From NCBI GenBank assembly GCA_963790025.1, contig CAWBMP010000004.1:960001-1024000 (forward strand): 64,000 nt of DNA, in the 5' to 3' direction. This DNA is from Nitrospirota bacterium (GTDB lineage Bacteria > Nitrospirota > Thermodesulfovibrionia > Thermodesulfovibrionales > Dissulfurispiraceae). Shown in pieces: positions 40,967-62,254 of this stretch; positions within the stretch are counted from its first letter, which is position 1; each line of letters begins with the position of its first letter. The notes under the pieces are model-generated. The model did not search any database, was not told where the DNA came from, and was given only the letters and a program-made list of their open reading frames with translations. Position numbers and translations under genes: made by a program.

Positions 40967-41266
40967 TCAGCAGAAGAATGTTTGCAGTTTTCCCCTGAGT
41001 CCTTTTGCGGTTTGCAGAAGTGTTGTCGACATCTTCCTTATCGTCGCCAGGCCACAAGTAATGACGTCTTTGGTCGTCACTTCCCAGCCCTCTTTAATTT
41101 TTCCCGATATCAATCTCAAAATTTTCGCTATGGCTTCATGGAAACGTTCGATGAGTTTCTCCAGAAGGTAAGCGATATAAACTTCTATGGCGAGAGCTGC
41201 AAAGCTTGCCAACTCCTGATGATGATTACGGAAATCTTTTACAAGCTGCTCTATTAAATGATTCAT
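40967..41266 (-). CDS. Hypothetical helical protein
   Basis: Strong SD AAAGGAGG, last gene of cassette, followed by hairpin at about 40905-40935. Confidence 0.6.
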   Translation of the reverse strand: MNHLIEQLVKDFRNHHQELASFAALAIEVYIAYLLEKLIERFHEAIAKILRLISGKIKEGWEVTTKDVITCGLATIRKMSTTLLQTAKGLRGKLQTFFC

Positions 41267-43131: not shown

Positions 43132-44151
43132 TTAATTGCTGCGCTCAGACTCTGCTGATGCTCTTTCAAAAGCGGCGTCAGTCATTGAGCCTATGTAGTC
43201 CGCAACCATCCTTTTGATTGATGTGGTTGAAATGTAGCCCCTGTCCATTGCTTTGACCCATCGGCCAATGTCCGAGTCCATTCCCCTGCGAAGCTGTTCG
43301 CAACATGAATAAAAAAGGAATCGGAAACTGCTTTCCCGTTTCTTCCTCAACTGTTCAGATGCCGCATAGGAATATATGGCCCGGTAATTAAACGCGAGCA
43401 ATCCCTCAATCGCCTTAAACACCCTTTTCGAAAAAGCGACCATGGAGCTGCTGCTCTGTCTGACCAAGTCATCAATCAGGATGTCCCTGATAGAAGCTTC
43501 CGTATCGCCAAGCACACAAGCGATTTGATCAGGTATATCGCCCCGGGTTATGAGGCCCACTGCAATGGCGTCCTCGATGTCACGGCCTAAATAGGCAATG
43601 ACATCAGAGGCGCGCACTATGCAGCCCTCGAGAGTCATCGGCATAATCAGAGTGCTGTAGTGCGCCACTTTAAAACAGCTATTGAGTTCTGTTTCGAAAC
43701 ATGTCCAGGTCTTGCGGTAATTGGGGACATACTGTCTGCGTAACATCTCGCCGTTGTGGCAGAGGATTCCATCCAGCACCGGCAGCGACAACTCCAGTCC
43801 GTTTTCAAGCACCGTGAGTATCCTTGCGCTCTGGGCGTTATGGGCAAAGAATCCGCAGCCCGACTCCATGCACAGGGCATTCAGATATGCCTCTCCTTCG
43901 TGACCATATGGCGTATGCCCCAGGTCGTGACCAAGTGCGATTGCCTCGGTGAGATATTCGTCACACCTTAATAAACGGGCTATCCAGCGGGCCACGTGAC
44001 TGACGAGTTGCACATGTAGCCACCTCCGGGTGATTCCATCTCCTGCTCCCGCCTGAAACGCCTGGGTCTTGTCATACCGGGCATACGCTTTTGACCCAAT
44101 AATCACCCCGCTTTCCTTAAAATAGTCGGCTCCGGCCTGCATTGTTTTCAT
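43132..44151 (-). CDS. HD-domain dNTP triphosphohydrolase (dGTPase-like), divergent N-terminus
   Basis: KTQAF, GHDLGHTPYGHEGE, HNAQS, SDVIAY..RDIEDA, DYIGSMTD. Confidence 0.88.
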   Translation of the reverse strand: MKTMQAGADYFKESGVIIGSKAYARYDKTQAFQAGAGDGITRRWLHVQLVSHVARWIARLLRCDEYLTEAIALGHDLGHTPYGHEGEAYLNALCMESGCGFFAHNAQSARILTVLENGLELSLPVLDGILCHNGEMLRRQYVPNYRKTWTCFETELNSCFKVAHYSTLIMPMTLEGCIVRASDVIAYLGRDIEDAIAVGLITRGDIPDQIACVLGDTEASIRDILIDDLVRQSSSSMVAFSKRVFKAIEGLLAFNYRAIYSYAASEQLRKKRESSFRFLFYSCCEQLRRGMDSDIGRWVKAMDRGYISTTSIKRMVADYIGSMTDAAFERASAESERSN

Positions 44152-44908: not shown

Positions 44909-45753
44909 CTGTGTTGCCTAATTTTTAACTTATTGTTTTTCGCAAAAAATATTTAAGCGGCAGGATAAAAATTCTCCAATACTGTTTTTTTGAGATGATG
45001 TTGATATGTCGCTTGAGGAGTAGATTGATCCAAGGTTGATATAAAACCTTTTGGAAATCAATCAAAAAAAACTTTATGAAAATTGTCGTTAGATTCGTCA
45101 GTGAAGGTTATTTCTAAAAATACTATAATAATAAAGGGCTGCCTTGTAAATAAAAAAGGGACATTAACAGTGAAACCAATTGAAATGTCTATGAATTACG
45201 TTTGATAAAAACTACGCTCCCCCCATTTGCCCCAAGATGGCGGAAGAAACTCGTAAAAACAAAGAGATACTCTTTAAAAGAACCTTCAAAAACAAAAGAA
45301 CTCTTAAAAGAATAAAACGAAAATATTTATTCATACATAATCGGTATATAATTTCACTCATTCCCAATTACTTTTCAATGTGTTCACAGTTTCCCAGTAA
45401 CTCTCTAGTCATGACTATAGTCACCTGTTGACTTACTAATCAGTCATTACTCCAGTCACCCTTCTTCTGCCTTTTGGTAGTGTTGAAAGGTTAGAGGTTA
45501 GACAACCTCAAACCTTTCAACTTGCTATCAATAAGAAAGCTACATGCTAACAAAAAAGCGTCTTCCTTACTGCTGAAAGCATATTGCTATCGAAAGTAAT
45601 ATCTATTTACGTACAGCATACAGCGTTCAGTGTTCAGCGTACTCCGTTGCAAACAAGACAGTTAATTATTGCAGTTTCAGTCGGTTAGAGCTTTTTAACT
45701 GTACGCCGAACACAGTACGGTGAACATGTTACGCAAAAGGGGGGTAGAGTATT

Positions 45754-46737
45754 ATGAAGATAGGAATTGATGTAGGATACGGGTATACCAAGGTCGTCAC
45801 AACGCATTCCTCAATTATCTTTCCATCCCGTGTGGGTCCTGCCAGGGAGTTGTCGTACTCGCTCAAAGAAGGCACTGACGTTATGGGAGAAACTGTCGAA
45901 TATGAGGGCGAACGATATTTTGTAGGGGAGAAGGCAAGACATAGCGATGTTACCTACACCCTCATGACAAGAGGCTGGATCGAGAGCAAGATGTATGGGG
46001 CATTGCTTACTTCGGCCCTTACCAGGGCAATGAACGGCAGATATGCTTTAGCTGACCCTGAAGAAATAATTATTGTCACCGGCCTTCCCGTAGATTATAT
46101 GAGAGATAAAACCAAAGCCGAAGAGAGCCTCGGAAAGGCGTGCGATGGGATTGGCCTCCGTATCACAGGCATCAATATAATACCGCAGCCTTTCGGCTCT
46201 TTTTTTGACATGTTTTACGATAATAACGGTGATATTGCCGGCAGCGCACCTTTCTTAAAAAGGATTGGGATAGTCGATATCGGTTATCACACCACGGATT
46301 ATATTCTTATCGAGGAGGCTCAACGCAATATCGAGAAGGCCTCTGGCAGCGTTCCTACTGGGGCCCATGAGATATACGATATTGTAGCCAGAGAATTAAA
46401 GAACATGTTCGACAGAGATACAGTTACTGCGGAAGAGGCCGAGCACTGCGTTAAAACCAAACATTATAAAGTCTCGGGTCAAAACAAAGATATGGGTACC
46501 CTGGTTGGCCGAGTGCTGTCACAAGTGGGGCAAAAGATAACTGGTATTGTTAAATCTAAATGGAACCTTGAAGGAGAAATTGACATTGTCCTGCTAACCG
46601 GAGGCGGAGCTGCGCTTATTCAGCCGCACATCTCATCTATAGCGCATACTCACTTCCTGATAAATGAACCCCAGATGGCCAATGCGCGAGGATATTATAA
46701 GAGGAGCGTCATCCTGGAACGAAAAATTAAAGGTTAG
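45754..46737 (+). CDS. ParM/StbA-family actin-like ATPase
   Basis: GIDVGYGYTK, TGLP, PQP, DIGYHTTD, LTGGGA, ANARGY. Confidence 0.9.
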   Translation: MKIGIDVGYGYTKVVTTHSSIIFPSRVGPARELSYSLKEGTDVMGETVEYEGERYFVGEKARHSDVTYTLMTRGWIESKMYGALLTSALTRAMNGRYALADPEEIIIVTGLPVDYMRDKTKAEESLGKACDGIGLRITGINIIPQPFGSFFDMFYDNNGDIAGSAPFLKRIGIVDIGYHTTDYILIEEAQRNIEKASGSVPTGAHEIYDIVARELKNMFDRDTVTAEEAEHCVKTKHYKVSGQNKDMGTLVGRVLSQVGQKITGIVKSKWNLEGEIDIVLLTGGGAALIQPHISSIAHTHFLINEPQMANARGYYKRSVILERKIKG

Positions 46738-46752
46738 CGGAGACATGGGCGG

Positions 46753-47049
46753 ATGGAAAAAACAGCAATATGCTTCATACGATTGTACCCTGATAATCCG
46801 GAGGATGCCCTTATTATTGCCGGCCTCGGCACAAGAAAAAGAAAAGGGGAGAAATCCAGGGTCATAAAAGACATACTTTATGCTCATTTCAGAAATAAGA
46901 AGAGCAGTCTCCCGGAACCGCCAACCGAATCACGCAAGGGGATTAAAGGACCATCGTCTCAGCTCCATCCGAAAAGCACTGCGCTGTCGGATGATGAAAA
47001 AGTGACATTAAAAAAGAACCTCGACGAACTTTCAGATATGCTTATGTAG
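46753..47049 (+). CDS. Putative ParR-like adaptor
   Basis: Small basic gene right after the ParM-like gene; RHH-like N-terminus, Pro-rich linker, acidic C-terminal helix. Confidence 0.6.
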   Translation: MEKTAICFIRLYPDNPEDALIIAGLGTRKRKGEKSRVIKDILYAHFRNKKSSLPEPPTESRKGIKGPSSQLHPKSTALSDDEKVTLKKNLDELSDMLM

Positions 47050-47075: not shown

Positions 47076-47867
47076 CTAAAAAGCACTCTTCACCACTCCG
47101 CCATCAACCCTCAATGGAGCACCCGTAGTTGCAGACGAAAGCGGGCTGGCGATATAGGTTACCAATGCAGCAACCTCCTCGCACGAGGCAAACCGCTTGA
47201 TTAGAGATGTGGGCCGGACCTTCTCGAAAAATTCTCTTTCGACTTCCTCGATAGTTTTACCTTGGGCCTTTGAATATGTCTCGACAAAATCACCTACCCC
47301 CCGGGATTTTGTTGGTCCTGGAAGCACGGTATTTACCGTGATGCCTGTACCGGCCACTGCCTCAGCCACGCCGCGGGCCACCCCCAGCATTGCTGTCTTG
47401 GTTACGCCATAATGAATCATGTCACCAGGAATTTGCACACCGCTCTCGCTGGAAATAAAGATGATGCGCCCCCAGTTGCGGCGCTTCATTCCGGGGAGAA
47501 AAAGCCGGGTCAGGCGAATTCCGCTTAAAACATTTACCTCAAATATACGCCGCCAGTCATCATCCGAGGTGTCTTCAAAAGACCGCAGCTCATAGATGCC
47601 CAGGTTGTTGACCAGTATTTCTACATCGGGATATCCCCTAGCAAGTTCATTAGCCGCTTCAGCCGTACTCAGATCACCGGCAAATCCATAAAGTGTGCCT
47701 TTGCCGGTTTCCCGTAACTTTGCTACCGCCGTATCTACCGAAGCCTTTCCGCGGCCATTGACGATCACGCGGGCACCTTCCCGCGCAAGTGATTCTGCTA
47801 TCGCATAACCAATCCCGGCCGTGCTGCCGGAAACAAGAGCAAGTTTATTTTTGATCTTTAAATCCAT
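47076..47867 (-). CDS. SDR oxidoreductase
   Basis: GSTAGIG, LVNN, YGVTK, DGG. Confidence 0.93.
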   Translation of the reverse strand: MDLKIKNKLALVSGSTAGIGYAIAESLAREGARVIVNGRGKASVDTAVAKLRETGKGTLYGFAGDLSTAEAANELARGYPDVEILVNNLGIYELRSFEDTSDDDWRRIFEVNVLSGIRLTRLFLPGMKRRNWGRIIFISSESGVQIPGDMIHYGVTKTAMLGVARGVAEAVAGTGITVNTVLPGPTKSRGVGDFVETYSKAQGKTIEEVEREFFEKVRPTSLIKRFASCEEVAALVTYIASPLSSATTGAPLRVDGGVVKSAF

Positions 47868-48082
47868 GATCTACCCCCTCTCCGCCTTTTTTTATGATTA
47901 TATCGCTCTCTTGTTTGTCAATCAACCTGGACCCTGACCTTGTAGTTGGTTGTACGAAAGCCCTGCAGCATTTTCTTAAAGCCGCTGCAATTTTATGATA
48001 CAATCATCTAAGGTACAGCAGCGTGTAATTTAAAACTTTGGGACCTGAACGCTGTGATCCTCTTAATCAAATGGGAGAAGGC

Positions 48083-49132
48083 ATGGATGAAGAACGTCTG
48101 CAACATCTGATGAAACTTATCAAGGGCGATGGAGAAGTAAAAAGCGTAGAGGGTCGCTGCGAAGTAAAGGAAAATGATAAATCCGACGTGGAGCTTCTCG
48201 ACGTATACTCGCGTGCAGTTATAACGGTAGTCGACGCTGTAGGGCCGGCAGTTCTGAGTGTTTCTGTCGGCGCGCAATCCCGGGCGAACAAAACAGAACA
48301 GATCGGATCGGGCTCTGGTGTTATGATCGCTCCGGACGGCTATATCCTAACGAACGATCACGTTGTGCATAACGCTACACAGCTATCTGTAACACTTACG
48401 GATGGAACAACACTCCCGGCGACAGTTGTCGGTGTCGACCCGGCTACAGATCTGGCTGTGATCCGTGCTGACGGTTCCGGGCTGCCGTATGCAACACTCG
48501 GCGATTCAGGCTCATTGCGTGTGGGGCAATTAATCATTGCAATAGGTAACCCCTTTGGGTTCCAGTCCACGGTATCTACCGGCGTTGTGAGTGCTCTTGG
48601 CCGGGCCTTGCGAAGCCGTCAAGAACGGCTCATTGAGAATATTATTCAACATACGGCGCCTCTGAATCCCGGAAACTCTGGCGGTCCGCTGGTCGATTCC
48701 AGAGGGAGGATCGTCGGCATTAACACAGCGATCATCATGATGGCCCAGGGGATAGGTTTTTCCATTCCGTCAAATACAGCCGAATGGGTAGTGTCTCAAT
48801 TGCTTACTCATGGCCGGGTGCGCCGGGGGTATCTGGGCATTACTGCACAGCAGCGGCCTCTCACCAGACGATTGGTCAGATTTCATAATCTGAATAGCGA
48901 TTTTGCCGTCGAGGTTGTGTCGGTCATACCTGACAGTCCAGCCGCTAAGAGCGGCATACTGGAGGGTGATATAATAGTGGCTATTAACGATCAGGGTGTG
49001 ACAAGCGTGGACCACATCCATCGCTTTCTCGGTGAATGGCCTGTGGGAAAGTCGGTGAAGCTCACTGTTATCCGTTGGCAGGAGCGGCTCGAAAAAGAGA
49101 TTATTCCCTCTGAGGAAAAAAGTCTGAATTAG
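48083..49132 (+). CDS. HtrA-like trypsin protease with one PDZ, no obvious signal peptide
   Basis: GSG, TNDHV, DLAV, NPGNSGGPL, RGYLGI. Confidence 0.92.
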   Translation: MDEERLQHLMKLIKGDGEVKSVEGRCEVKENDKSDVELLDVYSRAVITVVDAVGPAVLSVSVGAQSRANKTEQIGSGSGVMIAPDGYILTNDHVVHNATQLSVTLTDGTTLPATVVGVDPATDLAVIRADGSGLPYATLGDSGSLRVGQLIIAIGNPFGFQSTVSTGVVSALGRALRSRQERLIENIIQHTAPLNPGNSGGPLVDSRGRIVGINTAIIMMAQGIGFSIPSNTAEWVVSQLLTHGRVRRGYLGITAQQRPLTRRLVRFHNLNSDFAVEVVSVIPDSPAAKSGILEGDIIVAINDQGVTSVDHIHRFLGEWPVGKSVKLTVIRWQERLEKEIIPSEEKSLN

Positions 49133-49168
49133 CTTAACAAACCTGACATCAATAAGGAGGATTGCGTC

Positions 49169-49666
49169 ATGTCAACTTCTGAAGCGGCTCAATTATCAGA
49201 GGCTATTCTACTTAGAGTAAAAGAAGTGAAGGAAATTTATGCGGGGTTGGATGAGAACACTGCCTCCAGCGCTCCTTCCGGTCGATGGTCACCCAAACAA
49301 ATCCTTTCTCACCTCTGTGGCCCTGAAGGACGCGGTCATTTACCGCTCATTAAGGTTTTTCTGGAACATGACACCCCTCGAATAGACCTTGACATCGGGA
49401 ATGATTTCTTTTCGGGGAAGCGTTCGCGGATAACCGTTACAGAGCTTTTGTCGGAGTTTGAACAAGATTACAGCAGAATAGCAGAATTTGCCTCTGGTTT
49501 AACAGGAGAACAGCTGAACAGGAAAGCTCATATTCCTGCACTGAAAGAATCGCCATTGGGCGAGTACCCTACGTTGGCAACATGGATTAAAGGGCTGGGG
49601 GAGTACCACGTCGGCTCTCATATAGACCATTTGCGGGAGATTTTAAAGGCCCTCGGGGCGGCATAG
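49169..49666 (+). CDS. DinB-like protein
   Basis: WSPKQILSHL ... H..SHIDHL. Confidence 0.75.
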   Translation: MSTSEAAQLSEAILLRVKEVKEIYAGLDENTASSAPSGRWSPKQILSHLCGPEGRGHLPLIKVFLEHDTPRIDLDIGNDFFSGKRSRITVTELLSEFEQDYSRIAEFASGLTGEQLNRKAHIPALKESPLGEYPTLATWIKGLGEYHVGSHIDHLREILKALGAA

Positions 49667-49693
49667 GTTTCCATGAAATGCCATACGTAAGTT

Positions 49694-50635
49694 CTATTTA
49701 AAAATAAGTTCCGGTTTTTTCATGAACACGCGTGTATCGGGCGGTACCGAGTCTGTAATCCACACGTTCCCCCCGATTACCGAACGGGCGCCAATCACTG
49801 TATCGCCACCCAATATGGTCACGCCTGAATAGACGATTACGTCATCCTCAAGTGTTGGATGGCGTTTTTCATTGCGGAGCTGTCCCACTTCATCTTTCGA
49901 GAGAGAAAGTGCCCCAAGCGTGACTCCCTGATATATCCGTACGCGGTCTCCGATTTTCGTTGTTTCCCCGATAACCACACCGGTCCCGTGGTCGATGAAA
50001 AAACTCTCCCCGATTCGGGCGCCAGGATGAATGTCGATGCCTGTCACGCTGTGCGCATATTCAGACATTATACGGGGGACCAGCGGAACATTTTGCCTAT
50101 AGAGCTGGTGTGCCATCCGGTGCACGGTAACTGCAAAGAGACCGGGATAACTGAATATCACTTCATCGTAGCTCTTCGCTGCAGGATCACCGTCATAGGC
50201 AGCGCGAACGTCCTTGGCGAGCAAGGTCCTCATATGAGGAAGCTCCTGCATAAAATTTACAGTAATCTCCTCGCCTTGCTCTTCGCATACGACGCACTCA
50301 AGGTTACGGCGGCGGCATTCATGACGTATTGCAAAGGTGACCTGTTTCGACAACTTTTCAAAAAACGTCGTTACTTCCTGCCCATAATAGTAGACCAGAT
50401 TAACTTTATCTATTCGCGTGGGGGAGAAGTAACCTGGATACAATAATCCACACGCCATATGCGTAATCTCTATGATAGATTCCTTTGAAGGCAGTGGTTC
50501 CAGGTCTACATGGTCAAAACAATTTTGTGCATGGCAGACTGCTACAAGGTTCTCCACTATTACAGGAATTTGGTCGCGAAACTGCCTATGTTTTTCTATA
50601 CTGATACTACACTGCTCAGAATCAGTCCTGTCCAT
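49694..50635 (-). CDS. cysE: Serine O-acetyltransferase
   Basis: GDPAA, GIDIHPGA, IDHGTGVVIGET, KRHPT. Confidence 0.92.
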   Translation of the reverse strand: MDRTDSEQCSISIEKHRQFRDQIPVIVENLVAVCHAQNCFDHVDLEPLPSKESIIEITHMACGLLYPGYFSPTRIDKVNLVYYYGQEVTTFFEKLSKQVTFAIRHECRRRNLECVVCEEQGEEITVNFMQELPHMRTLLAKDVRAAYDGDPAAKSYDEVIFSYPGLFAVTVHRMAHQLYRQNVPLVPRIMSEYAHSVTGIDIHPGARIGESFFIDHGTGVVIGETTKIGDRVRIYQGVTLGALSLSKDEVGQLRNEKRHPTLEDDVIVYSGVTILGGDTVIGARSVIGGNVWITDSVPPDTRVFMKKPELIFK

Positions 50636-50725
50636 TGCCGGCCCTTATGCCTCCACAAAATCATAAATTCATGAGAGGCGTACCAGGTACGCCCCTCGAA
50701 ACAATATCTCCCTTTCACTCTACCC

Positions 50726-51319
50726 CTAAACACCTGCTGCCGCAGTCAGCGCCGAGTATGGCACAGCACGGCGGGCCCATTCGCTCCCCGGGTATTTCTC
50801 CGTCAGGGTATCGTAAGCCCTGCGCAATGGTGAAGCCTCATGAAACTTCTTGTACTCGGCCACACCCAGATAAAAAATAGCCTCTGGAGTTGCCCCTGCA
50901 TTTGGATGCTGCTCTATGACTGAAGTGAATGCCTTGATCGCGTCGTTAAAGTGGTCGGTGTCGAAAAAGACCTTTGCCCTGCCAAGTTCAAGATGGGCAA
51001 GCAGGTCATCAATGGGGACATATCCCACTATCCGGTGGTGCTCTTTCCCCGACTTACCGTGGATTATAAGGGTCGGGGTCCATTTGATGTTAAATTGTTC
51101 CATAAGCTCAACCGGCTTATCAAAGAAGCACTGGGTTTTCAGAGGAATGAAATTATCCTGGATAAACTTCTGGACCTGCTCACTTGAATACGGACCCGTA
51201 TTCATTGCAGCGCAACCAATTCAACCGTCAAACCAGAAATCATGATAGATCGGCTTGCCTTCCCTTTTAGCCTTTTTTATTGCCTCGTTGAAGTTCCCTT
51301 CCCATATTATCTCGGCCAT
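50726..51319 (-). CDS. Selenocysteine thioredoxin-fold + TPR-like protein (UxxC), 197 aa
   Basis: SD GGAGG, MAEIIWE...DFWFDG-U-IGC; in-frame TGA 51223-51221; hairpin TGAATACG-GGTC-CGTATTCA 16 nt downstream; WTPT cis-Pro motif. Confidence 0.85.
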
Positions 51320-51359: not shown

Positions 51360-54300
51360 TCATTTATCATGAAACTGACCTGATGTCAAACACCCTGTTC
51401 CTGCACGCACCCGTTTGCCGGTGATTATCCTTGACGCATTGCTTTCAAGTGTATCTATCCTACCCTCAAATGCTGCATTAGCCAAAATCGTGGTTGTCCT
51501 CTGAAATGCTGCCGACGCAAGAAAACTTTTTGAGTACAGCGGTATCTGACTGATGCCGAGGAGCACGGGAGTCGCTGTCGGAGGCTTCAAGCCTCTTCGC
51601 CGGGTCCTGTCACACTCATCTTCAAATTCGCTCTTATGAATAATATCACCTGTCAGAAACCTTGCCCCCCGGCTGTCTGTAACTTTCACAAATCCGGTCA
51701 TCTGGCTAAGTATTATTTCAAAATGCTTGTCATGTATTACCACTCCCTGTTTGCGGTATATCTTCTGGGCTTCATCGAGTAAATATTTCCACACTGCTCC
51801 GCCACCTGCAGCATGCAACAGATCATGGGGGTTGACTGCACCGTCAATGTTACTGAGCTCCGCCGCTCTGCGCGGCCTTCTTGCTTCAAGAAGGTCAATA
51901 ACCTCCGGAAGCCCGCCGGTTATGTCCATGGGAGTGACAACTGCTCCACCGGTATGAAATGTTCGCAGGGTAAGCTGGGTCCCGGGCTCACCTATGGACT
52001 GAGCTGCGATAATACCCACCGCGTCCCCTGTCTCTGCGGGCCTGCGGCTGCCGACATTGAATCCGTAGCAGCGCGCACAAACGCCGCGTTGCGCCTTGCA
52101 GGTAAGCACAGACCGCACTTTGACCTTTTCTATTTTTGCCTTGCTGATTTTTGCCGCTGTCGCTTTATCCAAAACGGTGCCATACGATACGAGCACAGTG
52201 CAGGAGTCTATGTCCAGAACGTTATCTGCCAATGCCCTGCCGGTTATTCTCTCCTCCAGAGAAATTTCTACTGTACCGCCGTTCTTCAGCGGTCCAAGGT
52301 AAATGCCTTCGAGCGTCCCGCAATCATCCGTAGTTACGATGAGGTCACGCGCAGCACTCACCAGCCTTCTCGTAAAATAGCCCGCCGCCGGCGTCTTCAT
52401 GGGGCCATCCACCCTGCCCTTTCGCGCCCCGTGCGTGGAAAGAAAAAACTGGAATGCACTTAACCCTTCTCTGAAATTCGATGTAATCGGCATTTCTACA
52501 ATTTCACCCGTGGGCTTGGCCATCAAACCCCTCATGCCGTTTATTTGGCGTATCTGGTTGAAGTCGCCTCTCGCGCCAGAATCACACATCATAAAAAGGG
52601 CATTGGATTCTACATGCCGGTCTTCTTTTAATACGCGCATCGCTTCAGATGTTATCCTGTCGGTTGCTCTCGTCCATACGTCGATTTCCTTATTATGCCT
52701 TTCGTTGTCAGACATCAAACCGGTTTCATAATGGCTCCTCACCTCCGCTGCTTCCTCCTCTGCCTCAGCAACAATGGCCGCCTTTTCGGAAGGGACGAGC
52801 ATGTCATCAAGACAAAGCGATATGCCCGACAACGTCGCATATTTAAACCCAATGCCTTTTATCTCATCCAGAAACCTGATCGTCTCCCTGACGCCGCACT
52901 TTTCATAGCACAACTCGATTAAGCCGGCAAGTTCCTTTTTATTTAAGACTTTATTTATTACCGCGAAGGGTATACCTGCTGGAGTTATGGCATAGAACAG
53001 CACCCTTCCAGCCGTTGTTCTTACCAAGGCGCCATCTATTCTGACCTGAATGCTGGAATGTTCTTCTACAATATTGTTTGCATATGCAATACACACCTCG
53101 TCCACATCCGAGAAAAGCATTCCTTCCCCTTTTCCCCTTTTTCCCGATTTCCCATCGCTGGTCAAATAATAAATACCCAGGACAATGTCCTGAGACGGCA
53201 ATAAAGCAGGCCTGCCGTTGGCCGGATGGAATAAATTGTTAGTGGACATCATGAGGACCCTCGCCTCTATCTGTGCTTCAAGTGAGAGAGGCACATGCAC
53301 TGCAATGGTATCTCCGTCAAAATCGGCATTGAAGCCCGAACACACAAGAGGATGGAGCCTTATTGCAGCGCCTTCAACAAGGACAGGATCAAAGGCTTGC
53401 ATGCTTAATTTATGCAAAGTCGGCGCCCGGTTTATTATGACTGGATGCTCGGCAATTATATCATCGAGGGCGTCCCAGACTTCTGGTTTCTCTTTTTCAA
53501 AAAGCCGCTTTGCCTGTTTCAGCCTTGGGGCAAACCCATTTTTAATAAGCCACCGGTATATAAATGGCCTGAAAAGCTCAAGTGCCATTGCCTTCGGAAT
53601 GCCGACCTGATGGATTTTCAATTCCGGCCCTATAGTAATATGTGCCCTTCCGGAATAGTCGACCCTTTTGGCAAGAAGATTATGTCTGAATATTCCACTC
53701 TTAGAGCTTATCATCTCTGAGAGCGATTTAAGCGGCCTTTTTTGAGACCGGTTTTTGACGGCAACATTCCTGCCATTGTCGAGCAGGCTGTCAACTGCGG
53801 CCTGAAGAAGCCTTTTTGCATTCTGAAGTATTATTTCTGGAGCGCCGAGGTGAATAAGTCTTCGCAAGCTTTGATTTTTGTAAATGACCTTGCTATAAAG
53901 CAGATTAAGATCGGAGGCAACAGTAGTCCCGGCGTCAGGAAAAATTATGGGGCGCAGGTCAGGGGGCAATACAGGCAGCATGTCTAAAATCATCCACTCC
54001 GGTTTGTTTCCGGACTTCAGGAGTTTCTCGATCAAAGAGAGTCTGCTTCTTTTTCTCAGGGATAACGTGCCATTCTCTTTAAGTCCCTTCGGAATGGCAT
54101 CCAGGTCAAGGCCTGTAAGTAGTTTCCTGATCGCTTCCGCACCGGTTTCAACATGGAAATGATCGCATGAAGTCCGGTATTTTCTGTACTCTTCATGTGT
54201 AATTGTCTGGTTCTGTTTGAGACCGCTGTCGCCCGGATCAATTACAACATAAAATTCGTATTGCACGATTTTTTGGACCTGCCGGGGAGGCAGTCCCAGT

Positions 54301-54671
54301 ATCCTTGCAAGAACGCTTTTAGGCCCTTTGTAATACCAGATGTGCGCAACAGGCGCAGCGAGAGTTATGTGGCCGAGTCTTTTTCTTCTCTCTTCCGGTT
54401 CCAGCAGCCCCGTACCGCAAGTCTTACATGAGGCTGCTCCACCGTTATCTGTGCCACAAGAACATTTACCCTTTCTTACCGGGCCGAATATTCCTTCGCA
54501 GAATAACCCATTTTTTACCGGGCCGCCATTTTTTAAACTGAATGTTTCCGGCGAAGACACCTCGCCATAAGATAATAAACTCTTCCCGAGGGGACTTAAA
54601 AGACCGATTCTAAGAGAATCAAATGCCTGATTATCGATCATAGGTTGTTGGCTGCAGGGACATGCCTCCAT
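51360..54671 (-). CDS. rpoC: Orphan divergent RNA polymerase beta-prime paralog (1103 aa; start uncertain)
   Basis: GLFCEGIFGP, PVLPPDLRP, KRVDYSGR, NRAPTLH, NADFDGD, SGARG, GEPGTQLTLRTFH, DITGGLP, DKHFE, AGTG. Confidence 0.95.
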   Translation of the reverse strand: MEACPCSQQPMIDNQAFDSLRIGLLSPLGKSLLSYGEVSSPETFSLKNGGPVKNGLFCEGIFGPVRKGKCSCGTDNGGAASCKTCGTGLLEPEERRKRLGHITLAAPVAHIWYYKGPKSVLARILGLPPRQVQKIVQYEFYVVIDPGDSGLKQNQTITHEEYRKYRTSCDHFHVETGAEAIRKLLTGLDLDAIPKGLKENGTLSLRKRSRLSLIEKLLKSGNKPEWMILDMLPVLPPDLRPIIFPDAGTTVASDLNLLYSKVIYKNQSLRRLIHLGAPEIILQNAKRLLQAAVDSLLDNGRNVAVKNRSQKRPLKSLSEMISSKSGIFRHNLLAKRVDYSGRAHITIGPELKIHQVGIPKAMALELFRPFIYRWLIKNGFAPRLKQAKRLFEKEKPEVWDALDDIIAEHPVIINRAPTLHKLSMQAFDPVLVEGAAIRLHPLVCSGFNADFDGDTIAVHVPLSLEAQIEARVLMMSTNNLFHPANGRPALLPSQDIVLGIYYLTSDGKSGKRGKGEGMLFSDVDEVCIAYANNIVEEHSSIQVRIDGALVRTTAGRVLFYAITPAGIPFAVINKVLNKKELAGLIELCYEKCGVRETIRFLDEIKGIGFKYATLSGISLCLDDMLVPSEKAAIVAEAEEEAAEVRSHYETGLMSDNERHNKEIDVWTRATDRITSEAMRVLKEDRHVESNALFMMCDSGARGDFNQIRQINGMRGLMAKPTGEIVEMPITSNFREGLSAFQFFLSTHGARKGRVDGPMKTPAAGYFTRRLVSAARDLIVTTDDCGTLEGIYLGPLKNGGTVEISLEERITGRALADNVLDIDSCTVLVSYGTVLDKATAAKISKAKIEKVKVRSVLTCKAQRGVCARCYGFNVGSRRPAETGDAVGIIAAQSIGEPGTQLTLRTFHTGGAVVTPMDITGGLPEVIDLLEARRPRRAAELSNIDGAVNPHDLLHAAGGGAVWKYLLDEAQKIYRKQGVVIHDKHFEIILSQMTGFVKVTDSRGARFLTGDIIHKSEFEDECDRTRRRGLKPPTATPVLLGISQIPLYSKSFLASAAFQRTTTILANAAFEGRIDTLESNASRIITGKRVRAGTGCLTSGQFHDK

Positions 54672-54773
54672 TATTTTGTCGCAACAAGACGCTATAGTAA
54701 ATATTACTTTCTTAATTGATATTTACGGCATTTGTTTTACGATATGTATATCGATGATATTTTAGGAGGACAA

Positions 54774-55019
54774 ATGGTAACAACTACAATATCACCTAAA
54801 TATGAGGAAGAAGCACTTGTTGCAGCAGGTCTTATCAACAGGACATCGGTTATTAAGCTCACTGAAAGCATTGCTATCTTCGCAGCAGACCTGAGCCTGA
54901 AATGCGGGCTGCCGATGGCCGATGCTGTTGTATACGCCACTGCACGGGAGGAAGATTGCCAGGTAGTGACTGGTGATGCCCATTTTAAGGGGCTCGACAA
55001 AGTTGAGTTTATTTCATAA
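54774..55019 (+). pseudogene. Collapsed vapBC: AbrB-type antitoxin N-terminus fused to the C-terminal half of a PIN toxin
   Basis: SD AGGAGG; MVTTTISPKY then ...LPMADAVVYATA..VVTGDAHF; PIN N-terminal acidic motif missing. Confidence 0.7.
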
Positions 55020-56188: not shown

Positions 56189-56536
56189 CTTTCCCGGTAA
56201 CTGCGAGTGTGGATGTCTAACGGTATAGTCCTGACCCCCAGTTTGCAGTTTGCAGTTTTCGGTATTCATAGCAACAATGTTTAAATGTTTACAGAGAGTG
56301 CGTGTTCCTGTCAACATCAAACGACACCCTAAGCTACTTCTTTGATAAGTAAATAATGATTAAATGTACTGGATTAGGTAATATAACGATGAAAGTATTA
56401 TGTATACTATGCCGGAAGATGTGCGGGCGGAATAAAAGGATAGGAGTAGTGTTCGAGACGTGACATGAATAGTGTGTTGAAGGTTTTGGTTTCGATGTTC
56501 CTGATGACAGGGTTGTGTGGGTGCGGTTGAGGTAAG

Positions 56537-57127
56537 ATGAAACAATTCATTCTCTCAACAATTGTGACAGTGGCGCTATGCGCTACGGCGTGCACGATTG
56601 CTGGAAGAGACTTTGTTAGAGCCGATTGGGAAAAACTAAATTATGGGGAGATGACACGCGAGCAAATAATTCAGGAATTTGGTGAGCCACTTCACGAAAC
56701 CCCACTTGAAATTAATAATTCTTCATGTACAGCTTTAGTTTATGATTTCGGCGGACCGACAGTAGGAACACGAACCCAGGTGTTTTACTTTTTCTCTAAT
56801 AGACTCATAGGGTATTTTTTTACCGGCGATCTTAAGGGCGCAGGTATTGACCCTGAGTCTTTTTCAAAAATCTCTCTTATACAAAAAGGGGTGACAAGAA
56901 TGGGCCAGGTCGATGCCCTTTTTGGAAAGGCACGTGGAATCTTTATATACCCGATGACGAAGAATAAAGAGGACAGGACTTTTGTTTATGCGTACTTGCA
57001 TGGGGGATTCAGTCGTCCAGATGAAAGAATGTTGATTATTAATTATGATACCCAAGGAATAGTGAAAGATTTTAAATATTCCATTATATTAGGCCTCAAG
57101 TCTTTCCTCGACTTTATAGTGATGTAA
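56537..57127 (+). CDS. Putative lipoprotein with two BamE/SmpA-like repeats
   Basis: Hydrophobic leader ending ATAC; GEMTREQIIQEFGEP and GVTRMGQVDALFGKA. Confidence 0.65.
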   Translation: MKQFILSTIVTVALCATACTIAGRDFVRADWEKLNYGEMTREQIIQEFGEPLHETPLEINNSSCTALVYDFGGPTVGTRTQVFYFFSNRLIGYFFTGDLKGAGIDPESFSKISLIQKGVTRMGQVDALFGKARGIFIYPMTKNKEDRTFVYAYLHGGFSRPDERMLIINYDTQGIVKDFKYSIILGLKSFLDFIVM

Positions 57128-58825: not shown

Positions 58826-59107
58826 AAGAATCCTCTTTTTATTGTCCCGTCCCCTGTAGGGGGGTAAAAACCAGGGGACGGGAATGTTAGGCCTTCATCA
58901 GGATATTACTTTTAAATTCTTCTCAGTGTACCCAGGAGATTATTTCTCCATTATGATTTATTGTTTCATTGTGCAATAGGAGGGACATCGATTACATAAA
59001 ATTCTTGACATTTTTATATAATCCTTCTTAATTTACCGTATGTGCTTTGATTATTCGGGGTGATTAGTTCCAGAACTCTGCGCACTACTATGCTTAAGGA
59101 GGTATGT

Positions 59108-62100
59108 ATGGGCGTATCCAGAAGAGATTTCCTGAAGATTTCCGGCGGATCTGTTCTTGCGGGGTCTTTGGGAGTGGGAGTTAAACAGGCAGAAGCAGAT
59201 ACAGCAGAGCTTAAAATCAAAAATGCAAAAGAGACCCTTACCATATGCCCATTTTGCTCCGTGGGTTGCGGCATTGTTGTACACTCGGCAAACGGCAAAG
59301 TCATAAATACCGAGGGCGATCCAGATCACCCCATAAACGAAGGCACGCTCTGCTCAAAAGGCTCCTCGATGTATCAGGTCATAAACAATCCGTCCCGGCT
59401 CACAAAGCCGCTCTACCGTGCACCAGGCGCCGCTCAATGGAAAGAGGTTGAGTGGGAATGGGCCTTTGATGAGATTGCAAATAGAATAAAAGATACGCGT
59501 GACAGGACGTTCAAAACCACCTCAAAGTCAAAAGTGAAAGAAAAGGGCCCTGATGGAAATGAAGTAGAGGTAGAGAAGGAATTCTTGGTCAACCGGACCG
59601 ACGGGATCGCCCATGTGGGAAGCGCCGCCCTTGATAATGAGGAATGCTATCTGATACAGAAATGGGTCCGCTCTCTGGGACTTGTTTATGTAGAGCACCA
59701 GGCCCGAATATGACACTCCGCAACTGTAGCGGCTCTGGCAGAGTCGTTCGGACGCGGTGCAATGACAAACCACTGGATAGACCTCAGGAATGCCGATGTT
59801 ATTCTCGTAATGGGTGGAAACCCTGCGGAAAACCATCCCATATCAATGAAATGGATCATGATGGCCAGGGAGAGAGGCGCAAAACTCATAGTCGTTGATC
59901 CGCGTTTTACCCGTACTGCAGCAAAGGCCGATATATATGCCTCACTTCGTTCAGGGACCGATATCGCTTTCCTCGGCGGCATGATTAAATACATTTTCGA
60001 TCACAACCTCTACTTCAGGGATTATGTCGTGAATTATACCAATGCAGCATTTCTTGTTAATCCTGACTTCAAAGGCCCTGGAGAATTGGAAGGACTCTTC
60101 TCCGGATATGACCCCAAAGCCAGAAAATATGATAAAAAGACATGGTCCTTCCAGATGGACGCAAGCGGCGTACCGAAGAAAGACCCGACACTCAAAGATC
60201 CCCATTGTGTTTTTCAGCTGCTAAGGAAACAGTATGCACGTTATACTCTCGATAAAGTTTCAAGCATTACCGGGACCCCGAAGGAAGACCTCCTGAAGGT
60301 ATACAAAACTTATGCCTCAACCGGAAGGCCGGACAGGGCAGGCACCGAATGTTACGCAATGGGCTGGACCCAGCATACGGTAGGGACCCAGAATATAAGG
60401 ACCATGTCAATAATCCAGCTCCTTCTCGGCAATATTGGAATAGCCGGGGGTGGAGTAAACGCCCTGAGAGGCGAATCCAATGTCCAGGGTTCTACAGATC
60501 ACGGGCTGCTTTTCCACGTATTGCCGGGTTATCTTCCGGTGCCCAGTGCTACAGTTGTTGATCTGAAAGCCTACATAGACAAATTCACCCCGAAGACAAA
60601 AGAGCCTAAAAGCGTGAATTGGATGAGCAATATAGGCAAATACATGACGAGTTACCTGAAAGCTATATACGGGGACCATGCGACAAAGGAAAATGATTTC
60701 GGATATGCCTGGCTTCCCAAGCCCGATGAAGGAATGAACGCATCATGGCTCATGATTTTTGACCAGATGTTCAAGGGGAAATTCGATGGTTTCTTTGCCT
60801 GGGGACAAAATCCCGCATGTTCGGGTGCGAATTCTATCAAGACGAGAAAGGCACTGGCAAAGCTGAAATGGATGGTGAATGTAAATCTGTTTGATAATGA
60901 AACAGGCTCGTTCTGGAGGGGCCCCGGAGTGAATCCAAAAGAAATTCAGACTGAGGTCTTCATGCTTCCATGCTGCTCATCGGTTGAAAAGGAAGGCAGC
61001 ATCTCTAATTCAGGGCGCTGGGCACAATGGCGATACAAGGCGATACCTCCTATCGGCCAATCCAAACCGGACAGTGACATCATGAATGAACTCTTCTTCA
61101 GAGTAAAAAAACTCTACGCCCGCAAAGGCGGTGCATTCCCAGCCCCGATACTGAACCTGACATGGAACTATGGTGAAAGAGGTCCGGACGGGAAGGTCAA
61201 AGAGATCAATACTCACCTCATCGCCAGGGAGATTAACGGGTACTATCTTGAAGACCTATTTGACAAGAAAGCCACTCCTCCAAAGCAGCTCGGGAAGAAG
61301 GGAGAACTCTGCGCCACCTTCGTGCATCTTCAGGACGACGGATCTACGTCATGCGGCAACTGGATATATAGCCAGAGTTATACTCAGAAAGACGGGAAAA
61401 TCATTAATATGATGGCGAGGAGGAAAAAGACCGATCCTACAGGGCTGGGACTTTATCCTGAATGGTCGTGGTGCTGGCCAGTGAACAGGAGGATAATCTA
61501 CAATCGCGCATCCGTTGACCCGCAAGGCAGGCCGTGGGACCAGAAAAGGGTCCTTCTTAAATGGAACGCCGAAAAAGAAGATCCCAACACAAAAAAGCCC
61601 GGCGTATGGGAAGGAGATGTGCCTGACGGCCCTGCTCCTCCGTTAGCTTCGGAAAAAGGGAAATACCCTTTCATCATGAAGCCGGATGGCGTGGGTTCTG
61701 TGTTCGGGCCGGGACTTAATGACGGGCCGTTCCCTGAACATTATGAGGCGCTCGAATGTCCCGTGCATGAAAATCCGATGTCGAAGCAGAGGATCAATCC
61801 CGCAATCAAACTTTTTGCTGATACAGACACGTTCTCGTGTGATTTAAGGTTCCCTTACGTGGCTACAACATATCGCATTTCCGAGCACTGGCAGACAGGT
61901 GTCATGACGAGGCATGAGCCGTGGCTGCTTGAGGCGGTCCCGCAGCAGTTCGTCGAAATGAGCGAGGAGCTTGCCAGGGACAAGAATATTAAATCAGGCG
62001 ATAAAGTAACTATAAAATCCGGTCGCGGCGAAATATGGGCCGTTGCAGTGGTGACAAAAAGATTCAAGCCTTTTAAGATCGCGGGCGGCATAGTGCACCA

Positions 62101-62254
62101 GGTAGGGCTGCCGTGGTGTTTTGGATGGCAGTATCCCGAGGACGGCAGCGGAGGCGACAGTTCCAATATTTTGACCTCCACCATTGGTGACGCAAATACC
62201 ATGATCCCTGAATCCAAGGCCTTCATGGTGAATATCGAGAAGGCAAAGGTATAG
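59108..62254 (+). CDS. fdnG: Formate dehydrogenase alpha subunit, selenocysteine, Tat-exported
   Basis: SRRDFLK; CPFCSVGC; HQARI-U-HSATV (TGA 59711-59713) in frame with ORF 59762-62254; SECIS-like GCGGCTCT-GGC-AGAGTCGT. Confidence 0.95.

Follow-up and report, generated by a model that had tools for sequence, protein, structure and literature searches.

Mobile genetic elements redirect transcription by means of activators, sigma factors or complete RNA polymerases (RNAPs), and bacteria are, to our knowledge, taken to have one RNAP beta-prime subunit. Phage multisubunit RNAPs encode both large subunits; late transcription in phage T4 relies on a single -10 box, TATAAATA, and on gp55, a sigma factor reduced to region 2; and Francisella reportedly has two rpoA genes and an alternative RNAP. 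Here we describe a 64,000-nt stretch of a Nitrospirota genome of the family Dissulfurispiraceae (contig CAWBMP010000004.1, positions 960,001 to 1,024,000; "the window"), in which a minus-strand open reading frame (ORF) at 51360-54671 encodes a second beta-prime belonging to the core gene set of a family of integrative conjugative elements (ICEs).

The locus resembles the phage multisubunit RNAPs in placing a beta-prime-like subunit on a mobile element, and differs from them in that the source genome (G000, 98.8% complete) has no second rpoB and the gene no viral context. Stand-alone second rpoC genes of the same class occur in Nitrospirota next to SNF2 genes (G092, G330, G363, G369), whereas the window gene has no adjacent SNF2, falls in a separate clade and shows the reverse pattern of conservation, the SNF2-linked type keeping its sigma contacts and eroding its catalytic moving parts. 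Unlike rpoB2 of actinomycetes and rpoA of Francisella, which are chromosomal beta and alpha paralogs, the subunit concerned here is beta-prime, shares about 45-48% identity with that of the host and is carried by a transferable element; the likeness to rpoB(R)/rpoB2 lies in a second core-subunit gene giving an alternative RNAP (available part of PMC5431353). Element-borne sigma factors, namely Sig7-8 of Tn916 and SigN of pBS32, turn on the genes of their own element with positive feedback, and are toxic when they compete for the host core (available text of 10.64898/2026.10.01.756105); the present element would share this circuit, and is unlike those systems, which use an unmodified host core, in also carrying the core subunit on which sigma docks. 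T4 late transcription, whose split sigma (gp55/gp33) is described in the available part of the same source (10.64898/2026.10.01.756105), has in common with our locus a divergent factor of the sigma2 type and one short box that lacks a -35; T4, however, modifies the host core and encodes no beta-prime, and no phage context was found for the present element. An element motif placed before transfer operons and common to small islands is also known from the SetCD/AcaCD regulons of SXT/R391 and IncC elements with their satellite mobilizable genomic islands (PMC4344509); in that paper (PMC4344509), the class II activator SetCD has its 19-bp site close to the -35 of sigma70 promoters, whereas the motif found here is a 7-bp -10-like box and no SetCD-like activator was identified in the element. 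A conjugative element with its own beta-prime was not found in the open-access literature, a coverage that leaves out most subscription journals, so that an earlier mention is possible.

An earlier note on this DNA had described the ORF as an orphan, streamlined beta-prime paralog under selection. The frame is indeed uninterrupted, translating as 1103 aa with no internal stop, and its product matches all five Pfam RNA_pol_Rpb1 domains (1-5). The catalytic core is as the note had described it (NADFDGD, NRAPTLH, RTFH and both Zn sites), and the retention of R425, R731, the trigger-loop residues Q929/R933/H936 and the eight Zn cysteines places the protein in the RpoC family. The rpoBC operon that the note had wanted sought elsewhere in the genome is present as one canonical rpoB-rpoC pair (n = 1) on contig C2, its rpoC being 47.5% identical to the window ORF; thus, the window gene is neither preceded by rpoB nor single-copy, as a housekeeping rpoC is. 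"Streamlined" proved apt: sequence insertion 3 (SI3; E. coli 943-1130) retains 3 residues and the jaw segment (1149-1190) retains 11. The otherwise invariant Y46/R47 (zipper), R259 (lid) and R275/R278/E295 (clamp helix) are L, K, T, K, S and A in the window copy. An assembly artefact or contamination was ruled out, since the contig measures 1.7 Mb and relatives share the same site. The AlphaFold2 model of beta-prime alone was uninformative, with a mean pLDDT of 68.9 and low values in the active site, bridge helix and trigger loop.

Conservation was compared between 29 paralogs and 52 canonical rows in E. coli numbering, obtained by alignment to an E. coli rpoC, with region names and most region boundaries as we assume them to be. 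The residues K334, R339, R346, R352, R425, N458, D460, D462, D464, K598, T790, Q929, R933 and H936 were kept in 29/29 paralogs. Near-invariant positions of the zipper, Zn ribbon, lid and clamp helices were retained at 0.42-0.65, those of the catalytic barrel, pore and trigger-loop base at 0.80-0.95; judging by this alignment, the family keeps its catalytic centre and has remodelled surfaces facing sigma and the promoter. Among the substitutions of the window copy, R275 to K and E295 to A concern residues named as sigma-binding in the available text of 10.1101/2020.09.07.285775. The clade of the host genus has lost the switch-5 LKEN motif, and also SI3 and jaw, the latter two being retained in all paralogs outside it. 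L783R and M932L are common to all 29 paralogs. L783R was considered as a sign of inactivity and discarded, being present in rpoB-linked rpoC of Patescibacteria and Thermotogae; position 783 of housekeeping rpoC is R in those two groups and S in uncultured Bacilli (L159, L160, L167, L195 and many Bacilli loci among L120-L239). The SNF2-linked paralogs (n = 3) reverse the conservation pattern of the element paralogs: 0.96-1.0 is retained in the sigma-facing regions (zipper, lid, Zn ribbon, clamp helices) and 0.40-0.61 in the rim, F-loop, bridge helix and trigger loop. At the SNF2-linked loci themselves (L094, L098, L081 and L102, in G363, G330, G092 and G369) the trigger loop and F-loop are eroded, three of the genes are intact, and in G092 one lies after an rpoB.

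The note's suggestion of selection on a second beta-prime was supported by the fixed catalytic residues and by the intact orthologues and the dN/dS values it had called for. Nonsynonymous to synonymous rate ratios (dN/dS, omega; Nei-Gojobori) of 10 within-genus pairs were 0.12-0.22, compared with 0.013-0.030 for housekeeping rpoC and 0.09-0.45 for other element genes, and the frames are intact over a dS of 0.4-1.4 in G000, G001 (to the contig end), G003, G006 and G009. At least two matches to the beta-prime core segment were found in 39/377 Thermodesulfovibrionia genomes (several of them judged without detailed examination); 20 were counted as this type and, with G283 and G308, make up 22/377 paralog-bearing genomes spanning five host families, the others being SNF2-linked, fused beta-beta-prime, rpoBC of other lineages and apparent split assemblies. 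In some genomes, additional rpoB-rpoC or rpoC-rpsL loci (L030 in G013 C203, L097, L084, L103-L104) come from other lineages and are probably binning contamination. One further paralog lies on a contig titled Bacteroidales, between metabolic genes of the host and the element backbone, an arrangement that may reflect a mis-assembly; that genome also encodes a longer beta-prime of 1451 aa, probably its own. The phylogeny, likewise proposed in the note, placed 19 paralogs on one side of a branch with a Shimodaira-Hasegawa-like approximate likelihood ratio test (SH-aLRT) support of 100 in a quick LG+G4 tree of 41 rows, unrooted and with long branches, in which the SNF2-linked paralogs are separate from the element paralogs; neither this tree nor FastTree placed the donor lineage. 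No relative was found among viral contigs. The 71 records from a plasmid collection were all below 60% identity, the 30 matches listed (45-47%) looking like housekeeping rpoC. A scan of the genome collection with a bridge-helix signature gave at least 120 loci, mostly housekeeping rpoC, the pattern being too loose; a stricter pattern was found in 5/401 Nitrospirota genomes, all within the order of the host.

The designation "orphan" did not stand in substance, because the gene belongs to the core of a conjugative element, with ParM and a parR-like gene 4 kb away and the relaxase, coupling protein and type IV secretion system (T4SS) genes from 1.6 kb past the window end, cargo lying in between. 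This explanatory context, which includes a sigma2-fold gene and a promoter-like box of the element's own, had been overlooked. The island (C4:~1,000,900-1,095,400, about 95 kb) carries F-type T4SS and type IV pilus genes, with profile matches to TraE/K/B/V/U/F/L, TraC (VirB4), T4CP and Replic_Relax, i.e. the secretion, coupling and relaxase functions by which an ICE is recognised. The relaxase proteins have an invariant PD..ExD motif and are of MOB_C type, PF13814 being assigned to the MobC relaxase superfamily in the available part of PMC5357655. The gene order in relatives is SLT, T2SSE ATPase, TraC/VirB4, coupling protein, Replic_Relax, (secreted protein), beta-prime, the last convergent with a parR-like gene and ParM; the source genome holds the same element genes. 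Of the loci beyond the host genus that include upstream DNA, 16/17 have the relaxase immediately before beta-prime (spacing -56 to 33 nt in 15 loci and 127 nt in one, by our own ORF calls), G011 being the sole exception, and the pair was also found in 4/8 metagenome matches. Element identity between G282 (family f2) and G308/G305 (family f6) reaches 96.8%/96.0% over 14.8/12.8 kb, compared with 76-79% for the rpoC of these hosts. Integrases lie at the sigma-like end of the element in G278 and G283 (in G283 beside tRNA-Val); none was found in the G000 island. Within the host genus the island occupies one chromosomal site and the paralog dS tracks that of housekeeping rpoC, indicating vertical inheritance there. 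The element backbone of G278, G282, G274, G106 and G378 (L118, L117, L272-L275, L268-L271) carries DnaN, ribonucleotide reductase and dUTPase genes, together with SbcCD-like, RuvC, RecG and SSB genes.

The sigma-like gene (250 aa; C4:1091666-1092418) heads the transfer operon and follows genes for an XRE protein and a ParB-like helix-turn-helix (HTH) protein, the XRE repressor gene being divergent from the operon. Its predicted structure has a four-helix N-terminal domain for which 16/17 best structural matches were sigma-family chains (region 2), the best being AlgU (Z 8.2, root-mean-square deviation 2.7, 78 aligned). A profile of 55 homologues searched against 20,838 G000 ORFs retrieved, after the protein itself, region 2 of two RpoD-like genes (E 0.002), and the Atlas lists a Sigma70_r2 cluster. 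The protein as modelled is a sigma2-fold protein whose region 2 has the aromatic melting residues of the sigma70 family. A helical segment follows a linker in the model, no sigma4 match being reported among its structural matches; the neighbouring HTH protein matches Sigma70_r4 in G014 only. PHROGs gave nothing useful for the protein. Strong matches to the family are present in 20/377 genomes, two of them as remnants, and in 14/22 paralog-bearing genomes, a ratio for which kinship and linkage make a p-value meaningless; in G011 a degenerate copy occupies the same position. At the equivalent of sigma70 E407, five lineages with R278 retained in beta-prime have D/E, and three with S/N at beta-prime 278 have I/V, a weak covariation, because it reflects one evolutionary change. 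Prediction of a complex between the paralog clamp (residues 14-340) and the sigma-like protein (score 0.19, mark 0.32) is no evidence either way. The elements of G278, G282 and G274 carry a second, Pfam-recognised sigma70-family gene, and all four Pfam sigma70 region-2 genes of G000 lie outside the element. At L110:1181-10963 (G266 C237) there are two pairs of ParB-HTH and sigma-like genes, of which the second precedes a full RpoD-like sigma70 gene that has GTAATAT upstream. At the element head of G006 (L046:8243-9493) and G003 (L075:68-1468), an IrrE/M78 peptidase gene adjoins the XRE repressor gene, an arrangement that we take to resemble a protease-controlled induction switch.

The motif GTA(A/T)TAT recurs upstream of element genes. 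Among 8-mers in the upstream regions of the elements of the genus, AAGTAATA was found in 26 regions, against 0.44 expected. In G000, A[AG]GTAATAT occurs upstream of 9/57 element genes versus 6/2158 others and GTAATAT upstream of 10/57 versus 36/2158. In host upstream regions GTAATAT has no strand bias (36/36), unlike GTATAAT (77/39). De novo, GTAATAT was among the top 7-mers in 3/10 other element groups (G282, G106, G266), and it lies 34-54 nt before ParB of a ParB-relaxase-beta-prime operon in 9 loci (G282, G278, G274, G106, G308, G313, G012 and both G266 loci). The same operon has GTATTAT at 25 nt in G092, the box at 311 nt in G283, and no exact site in G284 and G378; G018 and G099 have mostly GTATTAT. 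The 98 box sites are directional, show no conserved -35 and form no palindrome; at several of them 12-15 nt separate the box from an ATG, as in leaderless starts, and a leaderless start is predicted for the beta-prime gene of G003, G004 and G009. A scan for sigma70 promoters found 10, against 10.4 expected by chance. Small relaxase-ParB-integrase islands (n = 5; L315, L319, L321-L322, L323 and L325, in G285, G291, G127, G314 and G162) carry the box before both divergent genes, one site in G127 being just inside the ORF call, and may be satellites awaiting a helper, or else the box may work without the element beta-prime. The box was absent from 10/16 fetched loci, mostly flanking host DNA.

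These features incline us, by a small measure, towards a system in which the element beta-prime, host alpha2-beta and the element sigma-like factor would together transcribe the box promoters of the element; a specialised polymerase built on host alpha2-beta, as the earlier note had imagined, is with the same slight preference also our best reading. Upon induction of the element, in which the XRE repressor gene lies divergent from the sigma-like operon, the expressed beta-prime would assemble with host alpha2-beta into a hybrid core that prefers the element sigma-like factor over host sigma70, and the resulting holoenzyme would transcribe the transfer, pilus, partition and relaxase operons from GTA(A/T)TAT promoters. 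As the box is also located upstream of the beta-prime gene, and upstream of the sigma-like operon in several relatives, this would set up a positive feedback switch and a private polymerase pool. Such a private core would avoid or win competition for the host core, a motive suggested by the toxicity of competing element sigma factors in the Tn916 Sig7-8 and SigN systems. The chances seem to us evenly balanced that a swap of beta-prime, the element copy taking the place of that of the host, yields an orthogonal polymerase which, together with a sigma2 factor of the element, possibly split and with the ParB-like HTH neighbour as its second part, would recognise single-box GTA(A/T)TAT promoters of the element and of the satellite islands, and this also in a host of another phylum. 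If true, an element supplying only the sigma-docking core subunit would represent a new route of redirecting transcription, by a hybrid orthogonal polymerase; it would allow one to test, in a natural setting, how promoter choice is set by sigma-core specificity, zipper, lid and zinc ribbon and whether core subunits can cooperate across phyla, with a concrete prediction involving three genes and a 7-bp box.

Several observations weigh against this reading. A Pfam search of the sigma-like protein gave no sigma match (no hit at all), Foldseek agrees only weakly, with weak E-values, and Z 8.2 is modest for a helical domain. Its family was not found in 8/22 paralog genomes, including G274 (100% complete) and G106 (99%), both of which do carry the box; 6/20 genomes with the sigma-like gene have no intact paralog; and the co-occurrence of both genes is expected from linkage alone. 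The G000 motif counts and p-values are post hoc, TAATAT fits TAnnnT, which host sigma70 could read, and searches of the five box-island genomes yielded no paralog and no sigma-like gene. Several paralogs are broken: a remnant is left in G002, the gene is split in G004, G007 and G313, and the copy of G012 and one of those of G266 are fragments; some of these breaks may be sequencing errors, since housekeeping rpoC of G007 also shows short open frames. The bridge-helix positions 787 and 791, with prolines in 17-18/29 paralogs, presumably correspond to A818 and A822 of archaeal RNAP. In archaeal RNAP, prolines at most bridge-helix positions cut activity and natural ones are rare, detectable activity remaining in A822P (available parts of PMC2988716 and PMC2776397); the window copy, with two such prolines, may therefore be slow.

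An active hybrid polymerase could instead work with another sigma, either host sigma70 or the second sigma70-family gene of some elements, the beta-prime swap itself altering promoter choice or making the enzyme resist pausing along the ~80-kb transfer region. The presence in G274 and G106 of paralog and box, with no member of the sigma-like family found, the second sigma gene in the G278, G282 and G274 elements, the RpoD-like gene in that of G266, and the deletion in the host genus of SI3 and jaw, which have a role in pausing, all fit this alternative, which we nevertheless consider rather unlikely: the G000 element has the box and no Pfam sigma70 region-2 gene, GTAATAT shows no strand bias in host promoters, and retention of SI3 and jaw in every paralog outside the genus implies that their loss is not the function of the family. 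A sigma-less enzyme tied to DNA processing, priming or opening DNA for the relaxase or for element replication, would account for the tightest genetic link being with the relaxase rather than the sigma-like gene, and for the lid and sigma-facing surfaces being the most changed around intact catalytic residues. It would leave the sigma2-fold gene and the -10-like box unexplained, related relaxases occur without beta-prime in the small islands, and in the host genus selection persists with genes between relaxase and beta-prime, all of which makes it quite improbable.

The family could be functional elsewhere and the host-genus island an immobile, decaying passenger with a weakly constrained copy; the single chromosomal site across the genus, the dS close to that of housekeeping rpoC, the failure to find an integrase in the G000 island, the losses in G002, G004 and G007 and an omega about eightfold above housekeeping rpoC agree with this, but the low omega maintained over that range of dS with five intact frames, and the box retained upstream of beta-prime, leave it a slim chance. 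The decoy that sequesters beta, also raised in the earlier note, fits poorly and we give it very little credence: the paralog would bind host beta, and slow or sigma70-blind enzymes would lower transcription in the donor cell, as the bridge-helix prolines, the LKEN loss and the eroded sigma70 contacts might suggest; however, a decoy has no need of the NTP-binding and trigger-loop residues, every one of which is kept in 29/29 paralogs while it is the sigma-facing surfaces that have changed, 11 paralogs outside the proline clade have no proline at A791, and real catalytic erosion is exemplified by the SNF2-linked paralogs. The window features are listed in Table 1.

Table 1 Features of the element and its surroundings in the window (positions of the 64,000-nt stretch).
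Feature	Position	Strand	Remarks
RNA polymerase beta-prime paralog, element-borne	51360..54671	-	1103 aa; Met1 or Met11 possible start
NADFDGD catalytic motif, intact	53310..53330	-	
Altered bridge helix	52374..52418	-	E. coli-equivalent L783R, T786G, A787P, A791P, L796F
Box AAGTAATAT upstream of beta-prime	54701..54709	-	38 nt before beta-prime ATG
Box AAGTAATAT upstream of ParM/parR-like pair	45594..45602	+	
Box AAGTAATAT upstream of 546-aa element gene	58903..58911	-	
GTAATAT box upstream of lipoprotein-like gene	56378..56384	+	
ParM/Alp actin-like segregation ATPase	45754..46737	+	Conserved element gene
Small parR-like partner	46753..47049	+	Putative role, from position; no Pfam match; convergent with beta-prime in relatives
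HD-domain dGTPase-like gene	43132..44151	-	Conserved close to element end
Small conserved gene at element end	40967..41266	-	Adjoins host rhomboid-groES-groEL
Conserved element gene, 546 aa	57185..58825	-	No function assigned; in pilus/T4SS regions of relatives
Lipoprotein-like gene	56537-57127		GTAATAT box upstream
Inserted genes between ParM/parR-like and beta-prime in G000 (SDR, HtrA, acetyltransferase, selenoprotein)	47076..51319		Cargo, outside core module
Truncated PIN gene, toxin-antitoxin relic	54732..55019	+	Inserted upstream of beta-prime

Both flanking genes of beta-prime answer to their description in the earlier note: on one side lies the truncated PIN gene, and on the other a thioredoxin-fold gene (50726-51319, minus strand) with an in-frame TGA at the UxxC position, likely encoding a selenoprotein. 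A formate dehydrogenase alpha gene (59060-62254) is spread over two ORFs, the break being probably a TGA. Fused beta-beta-prime RNAPs of 2296 and 1595 aa are encoded at L095:3805-17657 (G201 C115) and L096:6033-18295 (G195 C32), together with a sigma54-activator-type AAA gene; a gene with a sigma54 DNA-binding domain follows the fusion in G201, and a reverse transcriptase-Cas1 (RT-Cas1) gene is located nearby in G195.

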